Source: Ruditapes philippinarum
Taxonomy: Eukaryota
Length of the DNA stretch: 64,000 nucleotides
NCBI RefSeq assembly: GCF_026571515.1
Contig: NW_026852659.1
Span: 1-64,000 of the forward strand
Direction: 5' to 3'
Within the stretch, counting starts at the first letter, position 1. Each line of letters starts with the position of its first letter. Position numbers and translations under genes: made by a program. Below the pieces are notes generated by a model. The model was not told the DNA's origin. It saw only the letters and a list, made by a program, of their open reading frames with translations, and searched no databases. Shown in pieces: positions 1-50,071 of this stretch.

Positions 1-370
1 TTTAAAATTTGCGGCGTAATTATGTTATAATAACCATTATTATATACATATTTAGGTCGCATTGTTACCGTTATTATTATTATTATTATTTTTACTATTA
101 TACTTTGCTTTAGCTCGTGCGAGATTTTTTTATTAAAGGTCGATAAACACTTACCAAGGCATTGTCACTCCAGGGGATGGTCCAGTGAAAATAATATAAA
201 ATTCAAGTTTTAGTAGAATCAAACAAATATTTATCCGATTTACGTAATTAATAAAGTATCTGAAAATCGAAGGAAAACGAATGTTACGCTTTTTATTATT
301 ATTATTATTATTATTATCATAATAATTTTGAATACAATGAATAAATAAAAATAATAAAATAGATACATAA

Positions 371-517
371 GGGTGCCTAGTGGTTAAGATGTTTGCCTCT
401 TGTTACAGGGATCGTGGGTTCGAACCATACCAGGGTCACGAGCATGTTTTCTTAAAATTAAATACGCAGCAAGCTTTTTTTTACAATCGAGCTAAAAGAA
501 ATAATGTTTAAACTAAA
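371..517 (+). mobile_element. tRNA-derived SINE (internally deleted), left-arm copy
   Basis: A box-like TAGTGGTTAAG, B box GGGTTCGAACC, 3' tail ACAATCGAGCTAAAA...AAACTAA resembling bivalve SINE tails. Confidence 0.7.
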
Positions 518-791
518 ATAAATGCGTTATTATAACTGATAACGTACTAATACTTGACAAATAGTAACTAATTTTGAATACTTACTATTATCTCTTCGTT
601 GAAAGATCTTTTCCGAAAGAAAGAAAAAAAAGTACTTATAGGCTGAATTATGCGAGTTATAAATTTACGAGCTATTCAGCTAGACGATAAATTACTTAAT
701 TACGAGAGATATCGGGCACGCTCGAATCATAACCCACGTTTGAGTCACAACCCACGGGCTATTTGTTGACTATATGATTCATATATAATTA

Positions 792-1485
792 CAAGTAAAA
801 TGGTTTCCTGCGGGGAATGATATAAAGATATTTCATTTAACTATTTTCAACATTGTTTTGGGAGAGGGGAATAAATAAACGTTTGTATCAGGAATATAGT
901 TGACAATAATCGATCAAAATAGAAGAAAGTCTTTGGAAACTGGTGACCGTTGATGACAGGAGAAGGTCGAACATTAAACAATTATTTCTTTTTAAGAAAA
1001 TGATTAAATAAGCCTACCATTTTATGAATAATTCCAAGCAAAAAAAAATAAAATAAAGTAAACACACAAATTTACGCAGAAAATATCTCTATTTATTATG
1101 GCAGATGCCACTACGAATATTTTAATTTTGTAGATTTTCAGTATAAACAATTTATTGTTTGTAAAATTTGAGATACAATGATAATTTTCAAATACATCAT
1201 TCAAGTTTTTCCACCTAAAACGGTAAAATAATTATAGAAAATTAGAAATATCACGTAACAGTTTTTTGTTCTTAATTAGGTGTAATTCTGACTAATTCCC
1301 TAGAGGTTATTCCGTAACGTACCGACAAACGGTATTTAGCCAGGTTTTCGAAAAGGTCAATTAACCAATCGTGTACGGTTTACAGATCACATGCTCCTCC
1401 ATGTACCGAAAACAGGTCACGTGCTCCTCCATGCTTCAAAAGTTAAACGCGTACCAATACCCTGCGGTCTCCAGACCGCAGGGAA
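792..1485. mobile_element. Helentron-associated non-autonomous element (HINE-like), inserted in left arm only
   Basis: 694 bp absent from the right arm (empty site ATAATTA|TAAGTTTT near 9459). Subterminal TTCCTGCGG / CCGCAGGGAA inverted motif and terminal 11-bp hairpin CCCTGCGGTCT-CC-AGACCGCAGGG (1460-1483). Confidence 0.75.
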
Positions 1486-1569
1486 TAAGTTTTATAGACA
1501 ATAACAATGATTCGTAGTTTGTGATGCTTTCGTAAAAATATGCTACATATTAATGATGCGTTATATTGA

Positions 1570-1670
1570 ATAATCCAATCGCGGGTTTGGAGAAAAGACT
1601 TTTAAATAAAATAAACCAATGAATGCCCTTTTATATAGCGTAATTTATCGCATTCGGGTATAAATACGAT
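1570..1670 (+). promoter_or_regulatory. Putative Pol II promoter of the BIR gene (CCAAT x2, TATA)
   Basis: CCAAT at about 1576 and 1616, TATAAATA at 1658, upstream of the micro-exon chain and BIR ORF. Mirrored near 9275-9370. Confidence 0.4.
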
Positions 1671-2171
1671 GAATATAAATTTTGAAAATAACGTTTAAAG
1701 TTTTACCAGCACAACTCCTTATATACTGTTATCGCAAGAGCCATATGTAGTCGAATTATATAGCATCGCAAGATATAATACAACAATTTTGTTTATATAC
1801 AGTGAAGGTTATTTAATTATATTTTACATCTTTACAACCTTGTAGCAAATAATTATAAATGTCGGAAAACCCTGTGAGGGAACCGTATTTTTATATATTT
1901 TATTTTACAGAAAGCTAGCTGGCAAGTAACATTTATTAAGTGTTAAGTGTTATTAAGTGTATTACTTTCCAGTTGTATCAAGTAAAGAAATATATTTATG
2001 TGATAACAGATATAATGTGGAAATGTAATTTAGATAAAAATATGGAAAAAAAAAACATAAAAAAATAAAAAAACATTAAAAAAAAACATTAAAAAGAAAA
2101 TGGAAATCTCAATACAACATTCACCTAAATGAAATGTAACATTAAATGGATTCTTTGTTTTTTAGAAAAAA

Positions 2172-2633
2172 ATGGAGCAAATAGATTGCGCAACAATGGT
2201 TCCACAAAATATGATGTTTCACGAAGACAGACTTGAAACTTTTAAAACCTGGTCTAATCAAATAATACCTAACAAATATACTTTGGCAAAAGCTGGCTTT
2301 TTTATACTCCTTGTGGTGACATAACAGAATGTTTTGCCTGTCACGTAAAAGTGCGGGATTGGCTTACAACTGATATTGCCTTAGATGAACACTTAAAATT
2401 TTCACCTCAGTGTGTTTTTCATAAAATGCTTGGATACGGATGTAATGACCAGCCTGATAACAAAAATCAAGTGAACAATCCCTTTTCTTCAGAACCGCAA
2501 AAATCATTATTACCAACGACACAGACATATATTTGGACATTCGGCACCTGCCAATTGCTTTGTGGGACGTCCTGAAAAACCTGCTACAAACTTTGGTACA
2601 TTATCTGGTGGATTTAAGTGGCCTTCTAAATAA
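2172..2633 (+). pseudogene. BIR-domain inhibitor-of-apoptosis (IAP)-like gene, left copy, frameshifted
   Basis: MEQIDC...RLETFKTW...LAKAGFF / YTPCGDITECFACHVKVRDW...DEHLKFSPQCVF gives a complete BIR CX2C-X16-H-X6-C. One T is missing in the run at 2298-2303, and there is a 5-bp deletion near 2528 relative to the right arm. Confidence 0.88.
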
Positions 2634-2709
2634 AAGGTTTAAATCTCTTCTTTTTTTTTGAAAAAGAGATATTATTCTTAAATTGCACATAAACTTTTTA
2701 AGCATATAA

Positions 2710-3050
2710 GATTGTGAAATATCATCCTCTAATACTATTAATGAAGACATATTGACTACCGAGCACGTTGATTACGTAACTCCTACTTCAGGGAGTAAAA
2801 AAACAGAATGGTGTTATTTATGCAAGTTAGTGCTGAAAGCTCATTTAAAAAAAACAACTTTATGTGGACATCTATGTTGTGGAAACTGTTATTCCAACAT
2901 TATCAAAGGATGGTCCTGTAAATGTTCCATTACAAATTTACAAAATTTGAAGTTGTTCCATGGATTGAATGTAAAGTTGACACACGGCCAATATGGGAAA
3001 GGGCGGTCAATACGGGATTTAGCCAAGCAGGATTTAGGAAAAACTTGGCT
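2710..3050 (+). pseudogene. RING-finger (C3HC4-like) ORF, degenerate, left copy
   Basis: CYLC...CGHLCCGNC...CKC pattern in ORF 2752-3252. No clean start codon. The 3' part is altered by a ~49-bp deletion relative to the right arm. Confidence 0.65.
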
Positions 3051-3799
3051 TAGCTTTTTTTGTGCAATAGTGTTAGTTTATTTGGTTTGGAGAGACGTAT
3101 ATGTCTATACGTGCTGTACTGTTTTTTATAACAAGATGGAGCATTGCAATTTATATACATTTTTTTTAGATTTCTCTATATGTCTTCCAACAGTATTTCT
3201 TTTTGATGACAATACCATTCATATCCATGCATATATTTTCTTTCTCATTTGAACAGAAAATTTGAAATTTGATCAAGTATACAACTACGGCCTCAGGCCA
3301 ATCCAATAACAAGGCCAAAATGAATTCAACTAATTAATAACATAATTAATAACATAATATTATTAAATGTGTAATTGATCGGCTGGTTTAGTTAATTTTG
3401 ATGACATTATTCTTATTATGCTAAATGTATTTACATAATGTAAGAAAAATATATTGAGTGATATCTTTTTATGTATATCGTCCACCAGCTATGAATAGTG
3501 CCTATAAAATTCACCACCTTTTATATATAGACATTATATAGAAAGTTAAATTTTTATGAGTTTTTTTCTTTCTGGTCACATTAAACCTTATCAAAAATAT
3601 TATGCAATATTTTTATATCTTTTTTTCTAATTTTTAAATCATCTTTCACTTGGTATCAGTATCTGTATTGCATTTAAGTGATCGATGTATTTGATTTTTT
3701 CGTTTGGGTTTGGGTTTTATAAGGTACTTTTTCCTGATAATTGTGGATTTTGTTATTTCATTTTTATGGTGGTATATTTCTGCCAACAGTGAACCATAT

Positions 3800-4300
3800 A
3801 ATTATCGCGTTAACTATCTGACTAACTAGTTAGTTTTCCTGTTAACACGATACATAACAGATATTGTTCAGACTAACTAGATATATTTTTTTCTGTTAGA
3901 TAGATAAATAACGAATAAGTATGTAACTTCTAAAAACACTAAAAAGTGTCCAGAACTGCCAACATTTACCAGTTAAATATCAGATAATTATCTGTTTATC
4001 TATAAAACTTTTGTGTTTGTAAGTTAGTAACCTAAGTATCAGATAATTATCTGAATAACCATATACAATTTTAGTTAATACATAATGCGAAATATTTCGG
4101 ACATATCCTTGCGTTTCTTATTATTATCTAACACATTAAGTGATTATCTGGAAAGGTTTTCTGTTACCAGTTAAATAACAGATAATTATATTATTATATC
4201 TACATAAATTTTGTATTAGTTACTTAACTACATAAATATTAGATAATTATGTGTATAACTAGTTAAATTTTCAGTTATCAGATAAAAGATAGATATTGCT
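3800..4300. repeat. Degenerate array of palindromic CAGATAATTATCTG / AGATAA and ACTAG motifs (mirror at about 6590-7090)
   Basis: Perfect 14-bp palindromes at 3981-3994 and 4040-4053, partial copies at about 4141, 4179 and 4241. Confidence 0.7.
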
Positions 4301-4562
4301 GAATGCTTTGGACATCCCTTGTAAGGGCGCGTTACTGACCAAAATTCAATTTTAACGACCGAAACATTTAACGACCGAACATTTTTTCTTTGAAAAAGGT
4401 GTAAATTGATGATTTGTAGAAAGTAGTACATTTTTCATTGTTAAACTTTCAAATTACCTTCATGCTAAAATTTGATAATGTTATAGAGTTTGCGAGCGTT
4501 CTTATATTATTGATTGTCTACCTCAATAACTAAAAAGTACGCCAAACTGAAATGACTTATAA

Positions 4563-5010
4563 TTAAATAGTACGATATTTTGTAAATTTTTTTAGTTCCC
4601 CATCTCTTTTTGCTGAACGCGCATTTAAAATTATGGAATTTAAAGACAGCAAAGTAGGATCACAAACTTGTTTCCTAACTGAACAACAATTAATGTAAGT
4701 AATCAAAGAAAAAAGCCTTGCAATTTGTGGATAACTTGGCAATAGCACTAAATGGAGACAGTTCTGTAAGCGGCGTTATAGAAACGAAATGTTTAATATC
4801 CTGTCGCCAGTTGTACGACTCCATAGAGAAAGCGTTATCCATCCCAGACTCAAATTTATGTATATGACCCGAATTAAGCATGTTAAGCATAACAAATGCT
4901 TATCACTTTCTGTCAAAATTTGATTCGCTTCATAATTGGAACTCATAACAATGCGCTGCACGTCCTTATAGAATGAGTCATCTAACACTTTCAGATAGAA
5001 TGACTAACGC
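4563..5010 (-). pseudogene. Degenerate unknown ORF (mirror at about 5880-6327 +)
   Basis: Overlapping ORF pieces (LDDSFYKDVQRIV.../MLNSGHIHKFESG...FFFDYLH) join by one frameshift. Mirrored with amino-acid differences in the right arm. Confidence 0.45.
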
Positions 5011-5191
5011 TTTAGCTTCTACTATTTTCTACCCAGACTACTGGGTGACGTTACGATGACCCATTAACGAATCAGAAATGGGGACGCTATCATTACGTTT
5101 TTAATAGCCAATTGCAACCGTTCTCACTCATGTTAGATTGATGGTATATAAATTGGAGTTAATTTTCTAAGCGTTATTTAGAGAAATATTA

Positions 5192-5402
5192 ATGTGGAAG
5201 CACTCCATGTCAAACCAGACGATGAAAGTAACTTTTGACGAAGTGGTAAAAACTGTAGTATTTTTCGTAGAAGAGGGTAATCGTCTAAGACCAGTACCCA
5301 AAAAGACACAAAACAGAAAGACTAAAAGAAATTTTGAAAGTTCTGAAACCAGTGCCATTTACGTCGCAAGATCGACGCGATAGGTCAGTTAAAAGGGATT
5401 GA
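5192..5402 (+). pseudogene. Small basic ORF with KVxF motif, left copy (1-nt frameshift at about 5335)
   Basis: CCAAT 5109, TATATAAA 5145, ATG 5192. MWKHSMSNQTMKVTFDEVVKTVVFF... One extra T relative to the mirror copy. Confidence 0.5.
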
Positions 5403-5485
5403 TATTTATTTTGACCAATTGTCAGCTTGATTAATAACGCGTTCCGCGTTATTCTGGTACTCATGACGTATGGTCAAAATAAATA

Positions 5486-5695
5486 TCAATCCCTTTTAAC
5501 TGACATATCGCGTCGATCTTGCGACGTAAATGGCACTGGTTTCAGAACTTTCAAATTTCTTTTAGTCTTTCTGTTTTGTGTCTTTTTGGGTACTGGTCTT
5601 AGACGATTACCCTCTTCTACGAAAAATACTACAGTTTTTACCACTTCGTTAAAAATTACTTTCGTCGTCTGGTTTGACATGGACTGCTCCCACAT
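5486..5695 (-). CDS. Small basic 69-aa protein with KVxF (PP1-docking-like) motif, right copy
   Basis: Intact ORF MWEQSMSNQTTKVIFNEVVKTVVFFVEEGNRLRPVPKK... with mirrored TATA/CCAAT promoter. Confidence 0.5.
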   Translation of the reverse strand: MWEQSMSNQTTKVIFNEVVKTVVFFVEEGNRLRPVPKKTQNRKTKRNLKVLKPVPFTSQDRRDMSVKRD

Positions 5696-7849
5696 TAATA
5701 TTTCTCTAAATAACGCTTAGAAAATTAACTCCAATTTATATACCATCAATCTAACATGAGTGAGAACGGTTGCAATTGGCTATTAAAAACGTAATGATAG
5801 CGTCCCCATTTCTGATTCGTTTATGGGTCATCGTAACGTCACCCTGTAGTCCGGGTAGAAAATAGTAGAAGCTAAAGCGTTAGTCATTCTATATAAAAGT
5901 ATTAAATGACCTATTCTATAAAAGGACGTGAAACATATTGTTAAGCGTTCCAATTATAAAGCGAATCAAATTTTGACAGAAAGTAATAAGCATTTGTTAT
6001 AGCTTATCATGCTTAATCCGGGGCATATACAAAAATTTAAGTCTGGGGTGGATAACGCTTTCTCTATGGAGTCGTTCAACTGGCGACAGGATATTAAACA
6101 TTTCGTTTCTATAACGCCGCTTACAGAACTATCTCCATTTAGTGTTATTGCCAAGTTATCCACAAATTGCAAGGCTTTTTTCTTTGATTACTTACATTAA
6201 TTGTTGTTCAGTTAGGAAACAAGTTTGTGATCCTACTTTGCTGTCTTTAAATTCCATAATTTTAAATGCGCGTTCAGCAAAAAGAGATGGGGAACTAAAA
6301 AATTTTACAAAATATCATACTATTTAATTATAAGTCATTTCAGTTTGGCGTACTTTTTAGTTATTGAGGTAGACAATCAATAATATAGGCACGCTCGCAA
6401 ACTCTATAACATTATCAAATTTTAGCATACAGGTAATTTGAAAGTTTAACAATGAAAAATGTACTACTTTCTACAAATCATCAATTTACACCTTTTTCAA
6501 AGAAAAAAATGTTCGTTCGTTAAATGTTTCGGTCGTTAAAATTGAATTTTGGTCAGTAACGCGCCCTTACAAGGGATGTCCAAAGCATTCAGCAATATCT
6601 TTTATCTGTTAACTGAAAATTTAACTAGTTGTACACATAATTATCTAATATTTATGTAGTTAACTAACTAATACAAAATTGATGTAGATATAATAATATA
6701 ATTATCTGTTATTTAACTGGTAACAGAAAACCTTTCCAGATAATCACTTAATGTGTTAGATAATAATAAGAAACGCAAGGATATGTCCGAAATATTCCGC
6801 ATTATGTATTAACTAAAATTGTATATAGTTATTCAGATAATTATCTGATACTTAGTTTACTCACTAATAAACACAAAAGTTTTATAGATAAACAGATAAT
6901 TATCTGATATTTAACTGGTAAATGTTGGCAGTTCTGGACACTTTTTAGTGTTTTTAGAAGTTACATACTTATTCGTTATTTATCTATCTAACAGAAAAAA
7001 TATATCTAGTTAGTCTGAACAATATCTGTTATGTATCGTGTTAACAGGAAAACTAGCTAGTTAGTCAAATAGTTAACGCGATAATTATATGGTTCACTGT
7101 TGGCAGAAATATACCACCATAAAAATGAAATAACAAAATCCACAATTATCAGGAAAAGTACCTTATAAAACCCAAACCCAAACGAAAAAATCAAATACAT
7201 CGATCACTTAAATGCAATACAGATACTGATACCAAGTGAAAGATGATTTAAAAATTAGAAAAAAAGATATAAAAATATTGCATAATATTTTGATAAGGTT
7301 TAATGTGACCAGAAAGAAAAAAACTCATAAAAATTTAACTTTCTATATAATGTCTATATATAAAAGGTGGTGAATTTTATAGGCACTATTCATAGCTGGT
7401 GGACGATATACATAAAAAGATATCACTCAATATATTTTTCTTACATTATGTAAATACATTTAGCATAATAAGAATAATGTCATCAAAATTAACTAAACCA
7501 GCCGATCAATTACACATTTAATAATATTATGTTATTAATTATGTTATTAATTAGTTGAATTCATTTTGGCCTTGTTATTGGATTGGCCTGAGGCCGTAGT
7601 TGTATACTTGATCAAATCTCAAATTTTCTGTTCAAATGAGAAAGAAAATATATGTATGGATATGAATGGTATTGTCATCAAAAAGAAATACTGTTGGAAG
7701 ACATATAGAGAAATCTAAAAAAATGTATATAAATTGCAATGCTCCATCTTGTTATAAAAAACAGTACAGCACGTATAGACATATACGTCTCTACAAACCA
7801 AATAAACTAACACTATTGCGCAAAAAAATGCTAAGCATTTTCAAATTGG

Positions 7850-8222
7850 TGTCCAAAATAGTCAATATCTAATCTCTTTTAACGCCAAGTTTTTCCTAAA
7901 TCCTGCTTGGCTAAATCCCGTATTGACCGCCCTTTCCCATATTGGCCGTGTGTCAACTTTACATTCAATCCATGGAACAACTTCAAATTTTATAATTTTG
8001 TAATGGAGCATTTACAGGACCATCCTTTAATAATGTTGGAATAACAGTTTCCACAACATAGATGTCCACATAAAGTATTTTTTTAAATGAGCTTTCAGCA
8101 CTTACTTGCATAAATAACACCATTCTGTTTTTTCACTCCCTGAAGTAGGAGTTACGTAATCAACGTGCTCGGTAGTCAATATGTCTTCATTAATAGTATT
8201 AGCGGATGATATTTCACAATCT
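7850..8222 (-). pseudogene. RING-finger ORF, degenerate, right copy
   Basis: Mirror of the left RING region with indels and stops. Confidence 0.6.
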
Positions 8223-8305
8223 TATATGCTTAAAAAGTTTATGTGCATAAATTTAAGAATTATATCTCTTTTTCAAAAAAAAAAAAAAGAAGAGATTTAT
8301 ACCTT

Positions 8306-8771
8306 TTATTTAGAAGGCCACTTAAATCCACCAGATAATGTACCAAAGTTTGTAGCAGGTTTTTCAGGACGTCCCACAAAGCAATTGGCAGGTGCCGAAT
8401 GTCCAAATATATTTGATGTCTGTGTCGTTGGTAATAATGGTTTTTGCGGTTCTGAAGAAAAGGGATTGTTCACTTGATTTTTGTTATCAGGCTGGTCATT
8501 ACATCCGTATCCAAGCATTTTAAGAAAAACACACTGAGGTGAAAATTTAAGTGTTCATCTAATGCAATATCAGTTGTAAGCCAATCCCGCACTTTTACGT
8601 GACAGGCAAAACATTATGTTATGTCACCACAAAGAGTATAAAAAAGCCAGCCTTTGCCAAAGTATATTTGTTAGGTATTATTTGATTAGACCAGGTTTTA
8701 AAAGTTTCAAGTCTGTCTTCGTAAAACATCATATTTTGTGGAACCATTGTTGCGCAATCTATTTGCTCCAT
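8306..8771 (-). pseudogene. BIR-domain IAP-like gene, right copy
   Basis: Mirror of 2172-2633. Same T6 frameshift plus GAA>TAA nonsense just before CFAC (~8614-8616). Intact C-terminus ...NFGTLSGGFKWPSK*. Confidence 0.88.
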
Positions 8772-9730
8772 TTTTTTAAAAAAAAAAAGAATCCATTTAA
8801 TGTTACATTTCATTTAGGTGAATGTTGTATTGAGATTTCTATTTTCTTTTTTAATGTTTTTTTTTAATGTTTTTTTTATTTTTTATGTTTTTTTTCCATA
8901 TTTTTATCTAAATTACATTTCCACATTATCACTGTTATCACATAAATATATTTCTTTACTTGATACAACTGGAAAGTAATACACTTAATAACACTTAACA
9001 CTTAATACATGTTACTTGCCAGCTAGCTTTCAGTAAAATAAAATATATATAAAAAATACGGTTCCCTCACAGGGTTTTCCGACATTTATAATTATTTGCT
9101 ACAAGGTTGTAAAGATGTAAAATATAATTAAATAACCTTCACTGTATATAAACAAAATTGTTGTATTATATCTTGCGATGCTATATAATTCGACTACATA
9201 TGGCTCTTGCGATAACAGTATATAAGGAGTTGTGCTGGTAAAACTTTAAACGTTATTTTCAAAATTCATATTCATCGTATTTATACCCGAATGCGATAAA
9301 TTACGCTATATAAAAGAGCATTCATTGGTTTATTTTATTTAAAAGTCTTTTCTCCAAACCCGCGATTGGATTATTCAAAATAACGCATCATTAATTTGTA
9401 GCATATTTTTACGAAAGCGTCACTAACTACGAATCATTGTTATTGTCTATAAAACTTATAATTATATATGATCATATAGTCAACAAATAGCCCGTGGGTT
9501 GTGACTCAAACGTGGGTTATGATTCGAGCGTGCCCGATATCTCTCGTAATTAAGTAATTTATCGTCTAGCTGAATAGCTCGTAAATTTATAACTCGCATA
9601 ATTCAGCCTATAAGTACTTTTTTTTCTTTCTTTCAGAAAAGATCTTTCGACGAAGAGATAATAGTAAGTATTCAAAATTAGTTACTATTTGTCAAGTATT
9701 AGTACGTTATCAGTTATAATAACGCATTTA

Positions 9731-9878
9731 TTTTAGTTTAAACATTATTTCTTTTAGCTCGATTGTAAAAAAAAGCTTGCTGCGTATTTAATTGTAAGAA
9801 AACATGCTCGTGACCCTGGTATGGTTCGAACCCACGATCCCTGTAACAAGAGGCAAACATCTTAACCACTAGGCACCC
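9731..9878 (-). mobile_element. tRNA-derived SINE, mirror copy in right arm
   Basis: Reverse complement of 371-517. Confidence 0.7.
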
Positions 9879-9929
9879 TTATGTATCTATTTTATTATTT
9901 TTATTTATTCTTTGTATTCAAACTATATG

Positions 9930-9945
<16 letters not shown>

Positions 9946-9992
<47 letters not shown>
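9946..9992. repeat. (AAT)n microsatellite
   Basis: Direct observation. Longer than the mirror copy at about 293-325. Confidence 0.95.
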
Positions 9993-9996
<4 letters not shown>

Positions 9997-10182
9997 GCGT
10001 AACATTCGTTTTCCTTCGATTTTCAGATACTTTATTAATTACGTAAATCGGATAAATTTTGTTTGATTCTACTAAAACTTGAATTTTATATTATTTTCAC
10101 TGGACCATCCCCTGGAGTGACAATGCCTTGGTAAGTGTTTATCGACCTTTAATAAAAAAATCTCGCACGAGCTAAAGCAAAG

Positions 10183-10215
<33 letters not shown>

Positions 10216-10701
10216 GGTAACAATGCGACCTAAATATGTATATAATAATGGTTATTATAACATAATTACGCCGCAAATTTTAACACAACTTCCTAAAAAT
10301 ATATAGAAAGTTTGTTTGTTTTTTTCCTTTTAGAAACGAAAGATAGAAGCGGCAAAAAAGCCGTACAAGTCCTGCTGGATAAACTCGAGAAACTGGTATA
10401 GGTAAGTAGACGAAACATTTTATAATAATTTCTACGACTGTTTGTTCGTAAATAATCCGATTACGAGTTAGTTGTAAATTTTTAATTAATTTCATGTATC
10501 GTGTCAATTGGTAAATACTAACGCTCAGAATATTGGATTATATATTGACTAATTAATATCGTTCTGGAAGAACACTCGAGAATTTTTTATAATATTGTGT
10601 CGTTTTTTTTTTTTTATTTAATCTTTTTTTTTTAATTTCATTTTTTTATGTCGTTTTGGATGTTGTTTTTTTTTTTAAATAAAAATAGTGGTAACAATTT
10701 A

Positions 10702-10974
10702 ATAAATGGCTTTGTTGTGTACTTATTGGTGATAAAATACCTTCCGACTTAAACTATTCTGCTTAGAACTTGGCGTTCTTTAAGCGATAATGTTTTTATG
10801 TTTAAAAGTCGTTATAGCGCGACCTTAAATGTAGAAATTTATAAATGGCTCTGCTGTGTACTTATTGGTCATAAAATTCCTTCCGACTTAAACTATTCCG
10901 CTTAGAACTTGGCGTTCTTTAAGCGATAATGTTTCTAAGTTTAAAAGTCGCTATAGCGCGACCTTAAATTTAGA
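10702..10974. repeat. 139-bp tandem duplication in subterminal region
   Basis: ATAAATGGCT...GACCTTAAAT units start at 10702 and 10841. Confidence 0.92.
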
Positions 10975-11096
10975 GTCATATTATGCTAAAATCGATAACT
11001 GTGCAGCGTATGGATGTAGTTATTGGATTAATATAGGAACGTTATTGCGTTTCGGAACTAATCGATAAATAGACTTATAATTTAAGAATTAATATA

Positions 11097-11286
11097 GACT
11101 CACGCGATGACGCATTCTTTTAATGACCCCTCATTAGTGAGTAACAGTTGACTCACGCGATGACTCATTCTTTTAATGACCCCTCATTAGTAACTCACGC
11201 AATGACGTCATTGTAATAGGGCCTGGGGGCAGCTCCAGTGGCTCCATCTCCAGTGGCTCCAGTGGCTCCAGCTCCAGTGGATCCAG
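11097..11286. promoter_or_regulatory. Subterminal repeats with AP-1/CRE motifs followed by (GCTCCAGTG)n
   Basis: Two 41-bp units (11097, 11150) plus a partial third. TGACTCA at 11149 and 11161, TGACGTCA at 11203. GCTCCA(GTG) repeats at 11232-11286. Confidence 0.65.
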
Positions 11287-12462
11287 GCATTCTGCCCAAG
11301 TCCGCATCATATACTACTAGCATGTAGTCAACAACTTAACAATGTTCTCGAATTTTCTATGTCGTAAAAGAAATTTGCACCCACCTATTCGTCGATTTCA
11401 GAGTCCACATCATGAATGAAAATGTTAAATCTCTACCAAGTATTTATAATCCTGACACATATATCTCTTGTTTACTACAGTATCACCATTGTTCATTAAA
11501 ATGTTTGCAGAAATTTTATCAATACTGGTATAAACTAAGAAGAAATTTTAACACAAAAACAATAATCTGTCTCAGAATATATATAATTCATTTATGTTAC
11601 TGGTCATCTACCAAGGTAAATAATGCAATACAAGTTTAACAAGTTTATTTATCTTTTCCCAGAAGGTCATAGACCCATGTGGTACAATATGCAAAATATA
11701 TAATATGACAAATGGCATCAATATTAAATTGACATGATCCCAAACATGCATTATAGTAGCACATCTTACATAGGAAATGGAAACATATAATCACCTATTA
11801 CATGATGTACATGCTTATACTTCTCATTTTCGTCGAATGTGTCAATAGTATATAATTATGCAACATAAAATCTAAGGAAAAATTAAACGTGATAAAAATC
11901 CAATTGTAATAACTTGACATATTACACCAGATCTATTACTGGTGAAGTAGATACTTTAACAGATTAAAAATCTTTCTGAATTGAATTTAAATCATGTTGA
12001 TAACGAAAGTGTGAATTTTACATACATTTTTACATATTACATGCATCATCTTTGACATTAGTAATATTTAAAGCATTTATTTAACAAATTTGATTGTGCA
12101 CGGGAGATAATTGCTAAGGTCGCTCGACCTGTATATCGAGTTATGTAACATCCGCCGCACTATAGCTTTAACAATATATTGACATACAATATAGTTTCTT
12201 AACATAATTAACTGCAGTTATCTAATAAAATGGAACAAATTTGTAAATAAATATGTATTATGTAATACATGTTTTCAGAGAAAGAGGCAAATCCTTCAAG
12301 GAACAATAGTCCTAAACAGGTCTTCAGCTAATGTTCAATTTACAGTGTTATAATTTGATATTTTAGGACCTGAATATGCAATGTTTATAAAATGAAAATA
12401 AAAAAATTCAAAATTTATAAATTTTTCTCAAAATGAAATAGTTTGCTTTCTTTTATTAACAG

Positions 12463-15248: not shown

Positions 15249-17824
15249 TCAATGGCTTTTTTTTAAGGTAAAGACATTAAGTATGTCACTTTCTCTACAG
15301 GAGACAAAGGCCCTTGATTTTTGTTTCGGAAAAAAAAAACCCCAAAACGGGTTTTTTGAAAAACCATTCTGCCTGTAATAGTTTAAACCTTATCCCCCGT
15401 CATTTTTTGACATTAAAGAAATTGTTTGATTATACAAACCCAAACATAAACTGACTTTTTTTTTTCCCCAAAAACACAACAATCTGAAAAAAGTTGCTTA
15501 TCTACAGTAATGTGTTTAATACTTTGGTTTTTATCAACGAGAAAGATACCTTCATATACGTCAGACACAAATATTTCCATTTTGAGGCTTGAGATTATAA
15601 CACGTGAAGGACATTGAATGTCACCAAAGTACGATGCTAACAATTGTCCAGAAAGAGAATATACCGCTAAATGGCCGACGTCTTCCTCTTCTCGTTTCTT
15701 TGATCCACCACAGCAAACATAAATCATCCCGTCATTGTATGCAATACCTCGACATCTATCGCCGACTTTAAAGGAATGTTGTAACTTCATTGGCTCTGTC
15801 TGAGAGATAAACTGAACTGTCTTATCATTAATCAGAGTAACGGCCAGCAGTGTCGAGTCTATCTGACAAATACCAAAAGGATTGTCATTGACATTCAGCG
15901 ACGATATGATCTGGAAGGAATCATTCATTTTCTTAATACATTTATTATGATAATCTGTCATAACAATACACCCATCTTCACACATGCACATGTCAAATAT
16001 TGTGCACGAATGCTTATCATTCTTTGTTCTCAAATTAATAACATGACATTTTTCTGCTTCAATTACTGGAAGATGAAGAACATTTCCAATAAAGTTACAT
16101 TTCGAATCAGTCACATGTCCGTCCGGTTCAAACCGTAATCTGCCTGTTTTTCCCGACCCTCCTAAGTTTTCTAAACAATCGCCTGCATCTTTTCTTCTCT
16201 CGTTAACAAGTTTTATCTGCACATATTTCTCGGATACGTTTTCATGTTTAGCAACACTGATCTTTTGCATATTTTCTTGAAGTGAAACGATCTTTGCATC
16301 AACTTCTTTCATGCATGACTCTATATGTTGCAGTTTTATCTGAAAGGTGGCATCCACTTCTTGAAGAAGTTGCATTTCCATTTTGTCCAAATGGTCGTTG
16401 ATTTTCTTCCTTTCTGATTTTATTTCTTTAATCAATTGGCTTTTTTCTTTGTTCGCATTTTCTACTTCTTCCTGCTTGATTTGTTTTAAGGCGTGGAAAC
16501 GAGACTGTAGTGTGTTTAGGTCAGCTTCCAGCAGGTTTAGTTTTTCGGAGGTTTTAGCTTTACAAGCTATGTCTGGTATGTAGCTTATACCTTTGCAGCC
16601 ACTGCAATGAAATAGCCAAGACAAGGTGTTATCAATATGAAATGTCAAAATACAATATAAATGCTAAAAATTACCTGGTAAAAAATTGTCATTCTGTCAT
16701 TATGATTTTATTACTTCTTTTTCAAAATATGACATTAATATAATAATAAATTAATGTCACACGACAGTTAATTAATAAATTTGTTTTGTTAATAATAAAA
16801 AAGTTTTCAAACAATAGCGTTATTATATGTGGCATAAAACTAGAATCTTCTGTTTTGTTTGAATTGTATATTCATAATATTCATATTTCAGTGAAATACT
16901 AAAATTGCTATACTAGAATCAATTAACAGGATGTCTTAAATAATAATTGTGAACAAGAAACATTGAGGGGGTGTTATATCCCGAGAACTCAAAATGAGAT
17001 ACAGATGATTTTAAGTGGTATTCAACTTTAATTCATTCTATAACTTATCTAAACAACAAAAGACATGACGAATGGCGATTTCTGCCAGCTTCCACATATT
17101 TAAAATGGCCGATTTACCCAGAATTAAAACGTACAAGCTGATAGACTCCGAAGAAAATATTGTAATGAACTTTATTGCTATCTCTGGAACAATGATACAA
17201 TATACTAAAAATCATTTTGACGACAAAAAGAGGCAGTTATTTTATTCTTTATATTATTTATTTTTTGGTTGGGCTTTTCGCCTTGTCAATGCATCGAAAA
17301 CGAAAGTAGAATTTTTCAAACATATGTTCAATGGATATATAGGTTGAACAGCCAAGATATCAGACTACAAAAAGGGCTAGCTATTAATATACTAGTATTA
17401 AATATTTGTTTTTCCTTGCTGGGTCTTACATCAAAATAATTCCCTTGTCAATGCACCGAAACCGAAAGTAGAATTGTTCAAACCTGTGTTCAATAGTCAT
17501 ACACGTTGCGCAGCCAACTTTATCATGACCAGGACAGTAGACATCAATCAATTTTCCTCCGTGTCTCTCACATCTCTGACTTGGTAATTCCTGCTTTATC
17601 CCGCTCGGTTGTTTTACCGTGTCTAGTAACTGATGTCCTCTCATTGACGAAAACTTATTATGATCACCTAAACATTTTTGACACAGATTTTCATCACATT
17701 CCACGCAATGTTTAATAGCAGCCACATTCTTCCCTTCTTTAAAACAAGGAGAACACGGAAAATCATGTTCTATGTCCGATCCTTTGTAAAAAGATGGGTT
17801 TAATTTACGGCCACTAACGGCCAT
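15249..17824 (-). CDS. B-box/coiled-coil/NHL-like beta-propeller TRIM-like protein (2 coding exons: 17824-17484, 16601-~15249)
   Basis: MAVSGRK start, B-box CSPC...CVECDENLC..C...H and CERH...C..H...C..C...H, phase-2 GT-AG intron, coiled coil, NHL-like repeats. The last ~230 bp are frameshifted in homopolymer-noisy sequence, but the frame VSCRESDILNVFTLKKSH* is recoverable. Confidence 0.88.
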
Positions 17825-25000: not shown

Positions 25001-26076
25001 GCTTTAAATTAATAAAGAGGCGAGTGCCTGGACAAATAATGCATTTGTTAGCCTTGTTTACCAGCAAATCACATTGACGTATGTCCATTTTCAGATTGAA
25101 AATGGAGAAGGCGGCTTTAGAATGGGAAGTCAAACCAGTGACTCATACTCAACACCATATTATTACAGTACGTAAGACCATTGTGGTACAGTTAGAGGAA
25201 GTTGCTAGCATTTTAGAAGACTACACCGTACAGTTCCAGAGGAAAGATGGAAGCAGGAACCTAGATAAGTTCTTTTTCGCCTGCAAGCTTAACGAAAGAA
25301 CGCTTAAAATCGAAATTAGACCACCTGAAGAGGTGGACTACCTTCTAAATATATTTGCACAAAAGAGTTTAGATGCTGCTGGTGAATCTGAACTTCTCGT
25401 TACTTATATCTTGAAGTGTGTTGAAGTTCTAGAAACTATTCGGCAGTTTCCGACAAATTTCCGTATATTCGGAGCCGTTCCGGATTATGCAAAATATGGC
25501 TTTTGTTCGGATATAACGAAATGTTGTGAATACACTTGCTCTTCCGGTGAGCTAATCCTTCCGCTGAAAACCAAACGTAATGTTGCAGGCATGACGAAAC
25601 TAGAACACATCACTGAAAATAAAGACCTCACGAACTATTGTCTAATAACTACAAAAGAACGCGGGATTTCGATCAAAATGCGGTTTCCGTTTGAGGGATA
25701 TTTTAAGTTTACGTTATTCGGAAAACAGGATGCCAGTAGTGGTTTTAGACCGGTTGCAACATTTCTGATAGACTGTGACCAATCTAGTCACGTGCATTCC
25801 GGATTTCCGGTTGCGTTTGAAGCTGCGCTTGAATTAAAATGTACGTTATACAAACCTCTCTGGAAAGATCTACCTTCAAACTCTACTGTTGTTATTATCA
25901 TGGGGTGTCCAAACATAGCAAGAGCCAGTGTGATGTACCAGGACCTGGTGAAGGATGAAAACGGCATTTTCGAAGGAACTGTGAATACACCTCCTGCTGG
26001 TCAGCCCTTTACTATATATGGGCAGAAAACTAGTGATGGCCCTCTTGTAGGATTGTTTCATTTCACAATATTCTAG
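19037..26076 (+). CDS. Kyphoscoliosis peptidase/hillarin-like transglutaminase-fold protein, paralogue 1 (exons 19037-19225, 20071-20163, ~20716-20961, 21456-21608, 22274-22389, 23062-23181, 23763-23964, 24479-24609, 25095-26076)
   Basis: FYRWIT, TISEGYANL, HYWNAV, IDCTWGAG, YFIVDP..MIVDHFP, WQLL motifs and KY-type Ig-like C-terminal repeats. GT-AG junctions with consistent phases. The 5' part of exon 3 is garbled. Confidence 0.88.
24050..24315 (+). mobile_element. Degenerate SINE-like insertion in intron
   Basis: tRNA-like head remnant and 3' TGACCTAAGTTGATGCGCCGTAAATCAAACAA tail resembling the SINE at 41436. Confidence 0.4.
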
Positions 26077-31500: not shown

Positions 31501-33149
31501 AATAGTAATGAGCACATCAAAGTAAATCAGCAGAGTTAACCCCCTTAAATATTATTTATATCTACCGTCTACATGCTGCAGCACTATGAAAATAAGGAAG
31601 TTCTAATTATTCACCTTTGCTCAATAAATGGTTGAAATGACATTTTCATATTTCGAATATGTGTTTATCTACCTTCCAGAAAATTACTGTTCGGCTTGAA
31701 CGTCATTTATAAAGAAAGAAAAAAAAACATAATTAAAAACCTCATTATAATCTTGAATACAATATTTTAAAAGAGATTACATAACATTTCAGACAGGCAA
31801 GCATTCCCGTCAAAATTATATGTGGTTTTGCCAAGGCCTTTGGTTGTAAACCGGAAGAAGATGTCACGAAAGAAATTCACAATGCGCATGCGTGGAATTC
31901 TGTATTTCTTGAAGGTGGTTGGTTCCTTCTCGACGTCACGTGGGGTGCCGGATTTGTAAAAGCCAAGGAGAAAAAGTATGTTCCTAGGTTCAACAATGCT
32001 TATTTTCTTACCGATCCGGAAGTGTTTATAACGGACCACTTTCCGGCATCAGTCCCTGGCTACTCAAACTGCGAAAGCGGAAGAGAATGGCAACTTATTT
32101 CTTCTAAACTTTCTAAACGAGAGTTTATCAATGTAGTTAATTTCGATAAACATGGAAAAGAATGGGGAATAAAACCCGTGAGTCACATACAATCGGTTAT
32201 TCACAATGTTGAAAATGAGCTTGACATAGTTCTTAAGGCTCAGTATACGGAAATGCTGGACTTCATCGCGTTTTTGTACGAGGATGACCGGAAACTAGAT
32301 CAGTTTACATACACGTACATGTTGAGTGAGAAAAAAGTCAACATTCACATTTGTTTGCCAACGACTGGAGTTTTTGCGCTTCAAATATATGGACGACGTA
32401 AAAAAGATGGCCGCCGCTCGGATTATCAACCTATTGTGAAATATATATTGCAGTGTATAAAAGCTGATGAAGACACGGTTCCTTATCCGGCGTATCATAC
32501 GCTGTATGGTCCTGTAGAAGATTTACACAGTTATGGAATCAACGAGGTGGGAGCCACATATCAAGAATCAGAAGAAGGGGAGATAATCATTTCAGTAAAA
32601 CCTACTCGGTATGTTGATATCCTTCCAAAATTGCAATTTGGTAACCATAATGTCAACTTGAAGGAATACTGTTTCGTAGACTACTCGGATTGTTTCCAAT
32701 ATATCAATATCATTTTACGATTGCGATATGAGGGATATTATAAACTAGAATTACTCACTACGCCAAATGATTCTAAAGAATTCAGTCCATTTGTAGCTCA
32801 TCTAATAAAATGTACAAAAGCCTGCACAGACGGCATTTTCCCTACTACCAAAGAATATGCTCTAAAATTCAAATGTAGCATTCTCGAACCTTTGTCAAAA
32901 CATTTGCCGCCAAAATCAGAAGTTTTCGTCTGCGTCAAGTCGCCCATTGTGAAAGAGATGAAATTTAACGATTGTCGTCTGAAAAAAGTGGACTCTGTAA
33001 CCTTTGAAGGAACAATTAAAACACCTGCGGAAGATTGTCCACTCTCGATTGACGCATGCGCAAAGGACGGCATATATCATACTCTTTATACATACGACAC
33101 GGTTATACCCCTTGATATGATATCATTGATTCCTTCAAATTATTCATAG
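28597..33149 (+). CDS. Kyphoscoliosis peptidase/hillarin-like protein, paralogue 2 (exons 28597-28842, 29309-29461, 30213-30328, 30913-31032, 31793-33149)
   Basis: FYVWITHNI, TVCEGYCKLF, HAWNSV, LDVTWGAG, YFLTDP..FITDHFP, WQL. Intact Cys-His-Asp. The true start may lie further upstream (~28470). Confidence 0.9.
28935..29165. repeat. Compound (GCA)n/(GTA)n/(GAT)n microsatellite
   Basis: Direct observation. Confidence 0.92.
31092..31352. repeat. ~24-bp minisatellite (TAGAACACTGGGTAACTGTCCATCG-like), about 10 copies, intronic
   Basis: Direct observation. Confidence 0.92.
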
Positions 33150-37565: not shown

Positions 37566-38639
37566 AAACACGAGGGCCAAGAGGGCCCTAGATCGCTCGC
37601 CTGACCCATTAAACTCATCCGAGCAATTACTGGCACAGGCATCCTGACCAAGATTGATGACCATTGTGTCAAAAAATGTGACCACTAGAGTGTTAACAAG
37701 GTTTTTTCTATATTTGGGCAGTGTGACTTAGTTTGTGACCCCAGGTGACCCGTATTTGAACTTTGCCTAGAAATCATCAAAACAAACTTGTAGACCAATT
37801 TCAATGATATTTGGAAAACAACAGTAGCCATGAGAGAGTTAACAAGAATTTTCTATTTTTAGCTAACGTGACCTAGTTTTTCATCAGAGATGACCAATGT
37901 TCATACTCATACCAGCAATTAACTAGATAAGCATCCTGATCAATCAAGTTTGATGACAATTGAGTCAAAAATATGACCACTAGAGTGTTAACAAGGTTTT
38001 TCCATATTTAGGGAGTGGGACCTAGTTTTTGACCCTAGGTGACCCATATTGAAACTTGACCTAGAAATCATCGCAAACAAACTTTCAGACTAATTTCCAG
38101 GATATTTGGATCAAAACAGTAGCCAGTAGTGTCAACAAGATTTTCTTTTTTTAGCTCCTGTGACCTAGTTTTTCATCAGAGATGACCCATGTTCGAACTC
38201 AGCCATGTCCTAGACAAGCATCCTGACAAAGTTTGATGATGATTGAGGCAAAAATATTACCACTAGAGTGTGAAAAGGTTTTTCCATATTTCAGCGGTGT
38301 GACCAAGTTTTTGATCAAAGGTGACCCATATCCAAACTTGACCTAGAAATCATCAAAACAAACTTTCAAACCAATTTCCTGGATATTTGAATCAAAACAG
38401 TAGCCACTAGAGTGTTAACAAGATTTTTCTATTTTTAGCTCCTGTGACCTAGTTTTTCATACGAGATGACACATGTTCGAACTCATCTCAGCCATGTCCT
38501 AGACAAGCATCCTGACAAAGTTTGATGATGATTGAGGCAAACATATGACCACTAGAGAGTTAAAGAAAAAATGTGGACGGACAACGGACATTCAACTATC
38601 CTTAAAGCTCACCCTGAGCTAGCTCAGGTGAGCTAAAAA
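37566..38639. mobile_element. Helentron-associated element (HINE) with internal ~290-bp tandem array
   Basis: Subterminal GCTCGCCTGA / TCAGGTGAGC inverted motif, terminal hairpin AGCTCACCCTGAGCT-AGCTCAGGTGAGCT, GGAC(A/G) microsatellite. CCACTAGAGTGTTAACAAG recurs at about 37682, 37977, 38260, 38404 and 38549. Confidence 0.85.
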
Positions 38640-46184: not shown

Positions 46185-46550
46185 TTAAAGCCACGCCTCC
46201 AGATTTATGCTAATTTTCAAAATGTGGAAAATTTTGAAAATGTGTTTAAAAGTATTATTTACTGAAATAACCAAAAAAAAAAGCAATTTAAACATTATCA
46301 ATGACTCTTACAACCTACGTTAATTACTAAAAAGAAGACAAAATATGCAAAATAGCCCTTACTGCGTTAGTAACGCAGTAGAAATATAGTTATTAATACT
46401 GGAAAATCGGTCATTAATCACACATAACATGTAAATTATTACTAGAACTTTGAATCTTTATACTTTTCCTAAAATCTAAGTAGGCCTACATTTTTCTCAG
46501 GTTTGATTTTATCGAAATATTTTTGTACATCTGGAGGCGTGCAGCTTTAA
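46185..46550. mobile_element. TTAA-flanked MITE (Kolobok-like)
   Basis: TTAA-AGCCACGCCTCCAGAT ... ATCTGGAGGCGTGCAGCT-TTAA. Confidence 0.8.
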
Positions 46551-46609
46551 GTGGTAATTTGATTTTTCAAGTTTTTAATCAGATTTTGAAAATAGATTTT
46601 AGCACTAAG

Positions 46610-46900
46610 TGCATCATTAAGTGTATGATAAGAAAATAATTATATTTAAATAATCATTAAGAATTTATAATAAAACAATACTAAAGAAAATATATTTAAA
46701 GAATCATTAAGAATTTATATAGTATAAGAATCTTAAAGAAAATATATTTAAAGTATCCATTAGAATTTATAGTAAAAGAATCACAAAGGAATCATATTGA
46801 AAGAATCATTTAGAATTAGTAGTAAAAGAATCATAAAGAAAATATATTTAAATAATCACCAAGTATACAATGCATTGTGAAAGAATAATGATTAAGAATA
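46610..46900. repeat. AT-rich ~52-bp degenerate tandem repeat
   Basis: AAGAAAATATATTTAAAGAATCATTAAGAATTTATA recurring. Confidence 0.8.
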
Positions 46901-47681
46901 TAAAGGAAAAGAAAAATGTCAGTATATAGAAATTATTGATAAGCACAGGGTCCTCGTTTTTAATCTGTTTGATTCATTATGTAATAATAAAGAGAGAATG
47001 ACACTTTGTTGTATCTTTATCAATCATGTGAGTGTGGTCAGACTTTAATATATATATTCTGTCTGGTTCCCTGCATAATATAGCAGTATCACGAGAAGAT
47101 AATCCATATGTGTTACCCAAGCGATTATTGTGAACGCTATAAATAACCGTCCTGGATTTTAACTGATTAAGATACAAATATAAATATAGCTGAAACGGTA
47201 GTAAAATAGTTTAACAAACAGACTCTGTTAACGCGGTAAGTACTTTTTATGTTTGAAGACGTATTTTTATATGTATTTGTATTATGTTTTATATGCTTAT
47301 TGAATACAAACTATTAATGTGCTTACCCAAAATATGTTTAATCTTGTTATTCATGCAATATAAAAAAGAAAAAACACATCTGAATTTTTGTTACATTGTC
47401 TTTAAATTCAAATTTTTTTGATAAATAGATATTATATTGCATGCATAACAAGATTATACATATTTAAGAACACATTATTAATGCGACTAGCACCTTTGAT
47501 TGAATAAGTATATTGTGCCTATAAAGTTTTATAAGAAAATGGTGTTAAATTGGCATATTTTAAAAATGTTTGATAGTGTTTGACATCTTGACTATTTATT
47601 CGTACACATGGAACTGAATGTGTATACATGTATCTGATACAGACGCTGTCATGACTTAAATTAGTTCTTCACTTTCGCATC

Positions 47682-47791
47682 TATATATAAAAGCTGCATG
47701 TCTCCACATGAAACAAACTATTTCAAGAAAATCAGACTTGAGAAAATTGTAATAAGATTTTTAGAAAAGAAAAAAAAGATCCGTGATTCAG
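47682..47791 (+). promoter_or_regulatory. TATA box and non-coding first exon of arylsulfatase gene
   Basis: TATATATAAAA at 47682, donor CAG|GTAATA at 47791/47792, acceptor TTTTTCAG at 48568 three bases before ATG. Confidence 0.6.
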
Positions 47792-47849
47792 GTAATAATG
47801 TACATGTTTTATGCGATTAATGACTGATTTTGCAACATTTATAACCATA

Positions 47850-48035
47850 TGGCTACTGCGTGACTCACGCAGTAAGGGCTATTTTTGCATATTTTGACTC
47901 CATTTTGGTAATTAACGTCGATTGTAAATGTCGACTGCAATGTGTAAATTACTCTCTTTGTTCACGTCACAATATTTTACTTTTAAATATATATTTTCAA
48001 AAATTCAATGAAAAATAGCATGAATTTGGAAGCAT
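47850..48035 (-). mobile_element. Truncated inverted copy of the 46185-46550 MITE
   Basis: CTACTGCG...CGCAGTAAGGGCTATTTTTGCATATTTTG is the reverse complement of about 46340-46381. Confidence 0.7.
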
Positions 48036-48571
48036 GTATTAAAATGTCCAATAAGGACCATCATTAAAGTTAAAAGCATTTAAACAACCATATGAGACTG
48101 GAAAATCGAATTGACGAAAAAGAAAAAAAACAACTAGATAGTAAACAATTAAAAACAAGGCAAATATTTTATGCCCACTCTGATGTTCTGACGTTCCATT
48201 ACCGTAGTTTCGTTATGTCAACATTTTATCATCTTAACTGATTTGCTTCATTGATTTTTATTTTACAAAGACGTATAGTGATGGTCCATGCGGGACACCG
48301 TACCTTCAATAAGAATGTTTCATAACCTTAATTGAAGATTCAATACTAATTAAGTCTTTAAATACTGATTTACTCATGGTTGATAAGACTTTATACTCAT
48401 ACAGCTGTTTTATCTGAAATCTTTAAACTTAAGTAAAGCATATATTGAATTGTACAAAATAGATGTATACTCTTTTATTTTCCCAAAACACCAAGCTGTA
48501 ATGATTTGTTAGCTTATATGCGGCCAAGTTACCTTTTTCTGTATGTACACTTACAAAATATTTTTCAGAAT

Positions 48572-50071
48572 ATGATGGAAAAAAGGATTTCGTTGATCAC
48601 GGTACTAATGTCACTGATACTGTGCAAGACATTCGGGCACACTCAAGCCAGACATATTGTGTTTATCGTAGCTGACGATCTCGGATGGAATGACGTTGGT
48701 TTCCATAATCCAGATATGATAACCCCAAATATTGACAAGCTTGCTAGACAAGGAGTAATACTGAACAGTTCGTACGTTCAACCAGTATGCTCTCCTTCTC
48801 GTCACTCCTGGATGACTGGAATTTATCCATTCAAAGCCGGTTTACAGCACGGGGCTATTTTACCACAACAGGCAGTATGCTCCCCTCTCTCTATGCAATT
48901 CTTTCCTGAGAGGCTACAAGAACTAGGGTACTCCACACACATGATTGGCAAGTGGCACCTGGGATTTTGCAATACGGAATGCACGCCTACAAGACGAGGA
49001 TTTGAATCGTATTTAGGATATTACAATGGTATGGAGGACTTTTACAATAAAACAATAATTAATGGTGTTGATTACAACGACGGTTTAAAGGCCATACCGG
49101 CAGACGATAGATACTCAACTTACGCTTATGCAGATAGAGCAAAGGAGATTATAGATAACCACAATCAAACTAAACAACTGTTCCTTTACCTTCCATTCCA
49201 GTCAGTGCATATACCGATTGAAGTTCCTAAGCGATTTGAGGATATGTACCAACACATCGCCAATGATGACAGAAGAAAGTACTCAGGCATGGTGTCTGCT
49301 ATGGATGAAGCCATTGGTAATGTGACACAAGCTTTAACTGACAAGGGAATGATAGACGATACTTTGTTTATATTTACGGCTGACAACGGTGGTTGGCCCG
49401 GTCACGGTGGTAACAATTACCCTTTGAGAGGTGGTAAAATCACAATTTTTGAAGGGGGAACGAGGGCTGCAGCATTTGTCTCTGGGTCTGGAATCGAGAA
49501 GAAAGGGTCCACATATGAAGGACTAATACACGCAGTTGACTGGCACCCAACCATTCTTTCAGCCGCGGGTAGTTCTAATGATGAAACAATCAACAATATT
49601 GATGGTCTTGATCAATGGAAAGCGATTAGCACAGGCGCTGAATCGGCTAGGAATGAGTTCGTTTATAACTTGGATGACTCATTGGATCCAGTAACTGGTC
49701 ATGCTGCCATACGAGTAGGCGACTTTAAGCTGATATCCGGATATCCGGGACCCTATCGGGACTGGTACAAACCGGAACAAGAAATCAAAGGCAGCATTGG
49801 CGTCTCAGCTCAACCATATGACTATTCTGCGATAGTTTATGAAGATCTGAGCAAATCGAATGGTATATGGTCAGGAGATGGTTTATATAATTTGAGAGAT
49901 GATCCAACAGAGCATAATGACCTCTCTAAACAATTCCCAGATGTTGTTAAAAAACTCAGAGCTAAACTAGACGAGTACAGGAAGGCATATGTAAAACCAA
50001 ATTTTCCAAAAAATGACGACAAATCTGATCCAAAATATTACGATGGTCATTGGGCACCCGGATGGTGTTAA
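48572..50071 (+). CDS. Arylsulfatase B-like sulfatase, intronless CDS
   Basis: Signal peptide, HIVFIVADDLGWNDVG, CSPSR (FGly motif), GKWHLG, DNGG...NYPLRGGK, C-terminal WAPGWC. Confidence 0.95.
   Translation: MMEKRISLITVLMSLILCKTFGHTQARHIVFIVADDLGWNDVGFHNPDMITPNIDKLARQGVILNSSYVQPVCSPSRHSWMTGIYPFKAGLQHGAILPQQAVCSPLSMQFFPERLQELGYSTHMIGKWHLGFCNTECTPTRRGFESYLGYYNGMEDFYNKTIINGVDYNDGLKAIPADDRYSTYAYADRAKEIIDNHNQTKQLFLYLPFQSVHIPIEVPKRFEDMYQHIANDDRRKYSGMVSAMDEAIGNVTQALTDKGMIDDTLFIFTADNGGWPGHGGNNYPLRGGKITIFEGGTRAAAFVSGSGIEKKGSTYEGLIHAVDWHPTILSAAGSSNDETINNIDGLDQWKAISTGAESARNEFVYNLDDSLDPVTGHAAIRVGDFKLISGYPGPYRDWYKPEQEIKGSIGVSAQPYDYSAIVYEDLSKSNGIWSGDGLYNLRDDPTEHNDLSKQFPDVVKKLRAKLDEYRKAYVKPNFPKNDDKSDPKYYDGHWAPGWC

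Follow-up and report, generated by a model that had tools for sequence, protein, structure and literature searches.

A palindromic, non-autonomous Polinton/Maverick derivative in Ruditapes philippinarum and the probable fold-back origin of its axis

The 64,000-nt stretch of DNA analysed here (hereafter the window; C1146:1-64000 within a 1.4-Gb assembly) begins with a palindrome of about 12 kb, which runs from the contig start to position 11318. This palindrome is a non-autonomous derivative of a Polinton/Maverick and duplicates the integrase-side end of the parental element. With moderate confidence, we read the unpaired spacer at its centre as the scar of a strand switch in this derivative, made by fold-back copying. 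The two arms are about 97% identical (96.5-98.2%), and position 1 is mirrored at about 10283. No contig continuing the palindrome past the contig start was found, and the left end is absent together with its target duplication (TSD); a terminus on contig C4367 was considered as the missing left end and rejected (87% identity, mismatched flank). The features of the element are as follows.

1..5417, forward strand: left arm of the element, truncated at the contig start, with about 1.0 kb including the left terminus missing
797..1488, no strand assigned: insertion of a 692-bp high-copy repeat, in the left arm only
2282..2434, forward strand: decayed BIR (IAP) fragment of the left arm, resembling the BIR gene of the full-length Polintons of this genome
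5413..5417, forward strand: junction microhomology GACCA, present in the left arm and in native family sequence, and the reverse complement of 5471-5475
5418..5470, no strand assigned: unpaired spacer of 53 nt, which is internal arm sequence in the sister copies (56 nt there)
5433..5453, no strand assigned: 9-bp stem with a 3-nt loop, private to this copy (sisters: 7-bp stem, 10-nt loop)
5471..5475, forward strand: TGGTC, which together with GACCA forms the 5-bp inverted repeat closing the native hairpin
5471..11318, reverse strand: right arm, complete to the element end
5776..6075, no strand assigned: diverged stretch in the right arm, differing from each of the other arms by 20-30 mismatches per 300 bp (2-14 in neighbouring bins)
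8512..8786, reverse strand: decayed BIR (IAP) fragment of the right arm
10696..11286, no strand assigned: sub-terminal tandem repeats (139-bp dimer; 9-, 15- and 24-bp units)
11298..11318, reverse strand: Polinton/Maverick-type terminus, 5'-AGTAGTATA... read inward, with the motif as in PMC8097293

The axis has the geometry that an earlier, sequence-only reading of this DNA had described. The arms indeed pair up to 5417/5471, unbroken for 34 pairs outward until the first mismatch at 5383/5505, and there is no pairing at 5418/5470 and 5419/5469. Within the spacer, which that reading had called structured, GTCA (5421-5424) and TGAC (5464-5467) are present, and the claimed stem was recovered as AATAACGCG (5433-5441), the loop TTC and CGCGTTATT (5445-5453), with its axis at 5443, only 1 nt from the arm axis at 5444. 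Other readings of the DNA around the axis were tried and set aside: a 58-codon frame that ends 30 bp before the spacer was dropped, as its full length is open in the left arm alone and Pfam gives no match, and as a structured RNA the region reached only 100 bits for Rfam MIR8562 (cut-off 211) and 19 for RSV_PBS (cut-off 47), both of which the palindrome explains. A tRNA search gave no hit.

The same reading had proposed that the axis resembles a hairpin-telomere concatemer junction. On this view, the element would stem from a replicon with hairpin ends: the spacer would be its telomere, programmed and incompletely paired, and the palindrome a concatemer junction that had been integrated. The concentric imperfect hairpin on the axis speaks for this proposal, the folding energy of the 53-mer being -9.2 kcal/mol (z -3.05; equalled by 1 of 200 shuffles). 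The sister copies speak against it. A search of the genome for the axis yielded six further arms on four contigs (all 7 of 7 candidates were scored), and in each of the six sister arms the match begins at window position 5413, preceded by the same unique inner sequence, which is the arrangement that the sequence-only reading itself had named as contradicting a telomere. The spacer is thus internal, and a junction at a 5-bp inverted repeat forms the axis. All six sister arms carry the longer-loop form in place of the 9-bp stem (with two extra changes in C1302), this form was also found in the short-read contigs of 4/4 runs, and the inner sequence appeared as a loose end at 5413 in 3/4 of them. 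A search of genome and reads for the spacer had been suggested as a check on a programmed end; in the 1.4-Gb genome, a single site matches the 21-nt stem-loop with one mismatch or fewer, and the four short-read runs give the sister form only. The window junction is likewise single-copy, flip and flop orientation being arbitrary in a symmetric insertion, and only in the window copy does an incompletely paired hairpin connect the two strands of one arm. As an end or axis the hairpin fails across the family, since the sister palindromes are centred on other sequences; moreover, the ends of the element are protein-primed-type Polinton ends with TSDs, and the spacer has 41.5% GC vs 30.3% in the arm. 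We therefore consider a telomere exceedingly improbable. A parvovirus-type rolling-hairpin replicon would carry a gene for a Rep/NS1 HUH endonuclease; the longest stop-to-stop frame in the arms has 180 aa, and of two arm frames scanned one is the BIR and the other lacks a Pfam match.

The assignment to Polintons rests on the ends and on the order of gene remnants. The Polinton end motif 5'-(AGT)2...(ACT)2-3' was met at the right end of the window element and in its sisters; AGTAGT-type ends are the commonest end motif of Mavericks and are associated with 6-bp target duplications (PMC8097293). Both of the sisters in which both ends are present have 6-bp TSDs (TGCAAG in C7783, TATAGC in C9107), and these two (C7783:127-29619 and C9107:140491-169694) are giant palindromes interrupted by nested insertions. 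A tyrosine-recombinase frame (Pfam Phage_integrase) in the left arm of one of them, at C7783:11415-12263, is probably a nested DIRS-like element. From the end inward, the family carries a decayed BIR, the spacer sequence, a TBP fragment and the C-terminus of pPolB in antisense, which is the parental order and polarity. The pPolB gene is absent from the window copy, and its C-terminal fragment (60-69% amino acid identity) was detected in three sisters only. A tblastn search with the integrase, capsid, ATPase and protease frames of four full-length elements found no match in the window or the searched sister loci; lacking these genes, the element is a non-autonomous derivative rather than a full member of the Polintons.

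Potential parents are available in the genome, in which 94 pPolB matches were counted. All four of the likely full-length Polintons that were fetched are 16.1-16.8 kb long, with AGTAGT ends, 0.9-1.6-kb terminal inverted repeats (TIRs) and 6-bp TSDs, and such elements encode PC4, BIR, rve integrase, TBP, A32 ATPase and pPolB, in addition to a weak adenovirus-protease match and a presumed capsid frame without Pfam match. The TBP-fold protein (Pfam TBP, E 7e-29) adjoins the integrase in them, for example at C4304:49998-50540. A full-length element with the exact terminus of the family was not found among the 8 matches to the 21-nt motif in the genome, and the termini on C824, C3620 and C4367 were rejected as parents, all being short, truncated or at contig ends. 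One of the matching loci, C824:320841-321240, is an element of about 400 bp that consists of the family terminus and scrambled sub-terminal repeats.

Since the palindrome stands at a contig start, we evaluated whether it is a long-read or amplification fold-back. The same assembly contains at least one genuine-looking example of such an error, a perfect palindrome at C15372:1397-4001 that is likely a long-read fold-back artefact, its 99% arms being joined by a 4-nt loop and its tail at the contig start consisting of low-complexity junk; in addition, the window junction is absent from all four short-read contig sets (four studies), a type of contig that drops rare variants, and the window copy may be polymorphic. 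The history of the two arms points the other way. The 692-bp repeat, for which 2462 candidate copies were counted in the genome (the 40 scored are 91-100% alike) and which we take to be Helentron/HINE-like from its terminal stem-loop and short sub-terminal inverted repeat, is inserted in the left arm alone, so that the palindrome predates the insertion. Compared with unanimous sister arms in two segments, the left arm has 15 private substitutions (9+6) and the right arm 27 (23+4), and 3+8 are common to both window arms; the right-arm excess is confined to the one 300-bp patch at 5776-6075, which may reflect conversion from a diverged relative or error-prone repair. The sister palindromes, furthermore, have differing flanks and TSDs. 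Given the arm-specific insertion, the private substitutions and the dissimilarity to C15372, we conclude that the window palindrome is biological, and regard an artefact as very improbable.

The junction of the window lies on a pre-existing 5-bp inverted repeat, GACCA/TGGTC, which closes a native hairpin of the family. This hairpin folds at -7.9 kcal/mol, a value matched by 1.6% of 1812 66-nt windows of a sister arm, and ranks 23rd of the 1070 5-bp-closed hairpins in the sister arm; the ranking is suggestive, not decisive, of a hairpin-associated breakpoint. In the 9-bp stem private to the window copy, five bases are replaced by two that lengthen the pairing, a change that probably reflects templated correction of the quasi-palindrome at a later time; as a single event it is weak evidence.

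The sisters extend further inward and preserve other junctions. In C7783 (both arms), C9107 (left arm) and C1302 (right arm), the sequence turns from pPolB antisense at about codon 1500 to sense at about codon 1442, and in C1302 it then becomes antisense again (1454-1465) and sense again (1532 on), amounting to two more switches within 70 nt. Each longer sister leaves this switch region at its own point, and the window axis lies about 2.4 kb further out than the old pPolB junction. A simple perfect ancestral axis near C7783:18413 had been considered, and mapping gave serial switches in pPolB instead. The family thus descends from a single fold-back within pPolB, after which the copies switched individually. 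Because the pPolB junction is mirrored on both arms of C7783, whole-arm re-copying is needed and deletion alone is insufficient. Arms of the same copy cluster together, with support of 100/98 for the window (in one segment) and 100/100 for both C7783 and C1302; the window grouping was not recovered in segment 6253-6795, and that of C9107, whose arms are 2.6-3.2% apart, was weak (81/89) and not recovered in another segment. Gene conversion can also produce such arm sisterhood.

Mechanistically, a strand that is being copied inward from one end, whether nascent or displaced, would stall at the native hairpin, its 3' TGGTC would pair with the GACCA 60 nt away, and its own arm would then be copied back to the terminus, which would result in a palindrome with two functional ends. 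Beyond the anatomy, which is read directly from the bases, we infer that the switches took place during extrachromosomal, protein-primed strand-displacement replication by the pPolB of a helper, and that the integrase of the helper would have inserted the two-ended product. Two observations weigh against fold-back at this site: the hairpin is weak, with 22 stronger 5-bp-closed hairpins in the arm, and the 53-56-nt spacer exceeds the 3-12 nt of the yeast data in PMC7999016, where inverted repeats of 5-9 bp suffice for fold-back in yeast mutants. The sequence-only reading had offered a one-off, structure-primed fold-back as its alternative to a telomere; the priming by a fold-back has held up, and the one-off character has not, as the event recurs in this and other Polinton families.

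The main competing explanation is that a longer palindrome, with arms of about 8.4 kb as in C7783, C9107 and C1302, was inserted and later lost its centre in the chromosome through break repair or slippage that brought the two GACCA words together, so that a 53-nt asymmetry remained. In the window copy taken by itself, microhomology-mediated central deletion and fold-back predict the identical sequence, the 5-bp microhomology at the junction included, and the deletion account retains the descent of the family from one old fold-back inside pPolB. Central deletions are known to stabilise long palindromes, and all three longer sisters are rearranged no more than about 50 nt from the shared old junction, as would be expected of unstable centres. 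What a deletion does not predict is a breakpoint that falls on a native hairpin, concentric and among the top 1.6%, and it leaves unexplained both the mirrored junction in the two C7783 arms and the independent palindromes from the other Polinton end. On balance, we hold central deletion to be a serious yet rather unlikely explanation, and probably a fold-back produced the window axis.

Fold-back derivatives were also recovered from other Polintons of the same genome. Three contigs (C1197, C15746 and C12449) were chosen for opposed pPolB matches, and two of the loci, C1197:48086-60466 and C15746:62627-71830, each consist of the pPolB end in palindromic form and carry 6-bp TSDs; C12449 was rejected as a clean example, being palindromic yet complex and lacking a matching TSD. 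In the C1197 palindrome (12.4 kb), two pPolB frames of 1582 and 1568 aa are open and lie tail to tail, and one of the arms is about 700 bp longer, reaching into a 21-bp tandem array before turning. Two further loci, chosen for opposed PC4 matches, are integrase-side inversions. An end pattern for other Polinton families had 445 matches vs 11 for the control, and 18 facing terminus pairs, 4.6-9.2 kb apart, were sampled among the first 100 of the 445 listed; a 6-bp TSD is present in 17 of these 18, and self-inversion reaches at least 89% in 5, the remaining sampled elements having arms of about 1.5-2.4 kb that flank a unique middle. The centres of the sampled palindromes lie in GGT/GGC/GGA-rich tracts and are copy-specific, unlike the window hairpin. 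Opposed pPolB fragments at C6095:162717-167864 are possibly another inverted Polinton derivative. A packaging constraint, suggested by the agreement of a doubled long arm (about 16.7 kb) with the full-length elements (16.1-16.8 kb), was dropped, as the other palindromes measure 6-12 kb.

We see about an even chance that animal Polintons, in the manner of defective-interfering viruses, shed copy-back (snap-back) defective genomes by serial template switching of the protein-primed polymerase, that these have one end in two copies, are re-replicated and re-folded over generations and inserted by a helper integrase, and that the genome thus preserves a series of them from both ends, including palindromes with two open pPolB frames, whose junctions would be a fossil record of replication.

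The rest of the window contains further features. Host-type frames were found at 15413-16663 (reverse strand), 25081-26076, 32022-33149 and 48506-50071 (all forward strand), with a coiled-coil plus beta-propeller content (presumably TRIM/NHL-like), two KY-like Ig-domain frames and a sulfatase. A second, diverged inverted-repeat pair (76-81%) at 46273-47962 flanks 25-bp AT-rich tandem repeats and is probably another foldback-type repeat, and diverged tandem arrays occupy 37670-38570 (units of about 145 bp) and 61890-62920 (units of about 85 bp).

Protein-primed strand-displacement replication of Polintons has been inferred from gene content, and we know of no direct observation of Polinton replication in animals. 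Integrated palindromes with strand switches resolved to the base are a by-product expected of the protein-primed mechanism, and the recurrent turn-backs in this genome hint at the replication mode of Polintons. The junctions supply testable sites (short inverted repeats and G-rich triplet tracts), and they show a route by which palindromes of several kilobases, which are normally unstable, enter the germ line of an animal. They also serve as a warning that such features of contigs are neither telomeres nor always assembly artefacts. No description of palindromic Polinton derivatives was found in a search of the open-access literature; this locus contributes the collinearity with the parent, the base-level junctions and the derivatives from both Polinton ends.

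Among known systems, Foldback transposons (FB, Galileo-type) share the long inverted arms, internal repeats and variable centre, and differ in belonging to a MULE or P-type transposase lineage, whereas Polinton ends, a 6-bp TSD and Polinton remnants are present here. Linear plasmids of yeast and Streptomyces give hairpin or palindromic derivatives. In protein-primed replication of phi29 without SSB, displaced strands are unprotected and short palindromic DNAs arise (PMC2175359). Such by-products are alike in that one terminal-protein-type end is duplicated by a strand switch, giving two origins. In contrast to these phage and plasmid products, the elements described here have been inserted, with TSDs, into the germ line of an animal and are known from sequence alone. 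Chromosomal fold-back at short inverted repeats (PMC7999016) likewise gives a large palindrome with a short asymmetric spacer and a 5-bp repeat, whereas the duplication here ends at the element terminus and not in flanking chromosome, as judged from the TSDs of the sisters. The flip-flop telomeres of poxviruses, ASFV and Kaumoebavirus also place an imperfect hairpin between inverted arms (PMC7909422); the window hairpin, by comparison, is not a replicon end, is unconserved between copies and is not the axis of the family. The closest relatives are the Polintons/Mavericks themselves (PMC8097293 and PMC6431247), which share the (AGT)2 ends, the 6-bp TSD seen in the sisters and the collinear BIR, TBP and pPolB remnants. 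The family differs from them in that both of its ends derive from the same parental end, in that its arms measure 5.9-8.4 kb as compared with 46-1,447 bp reported for the TIRs of vertebrate Mavericks, and in that integrase, capsid, ATPase and intact pPolB are lacking. By analogy, the window element would work like the snap-back defective genome of a terminal-protein replicon.
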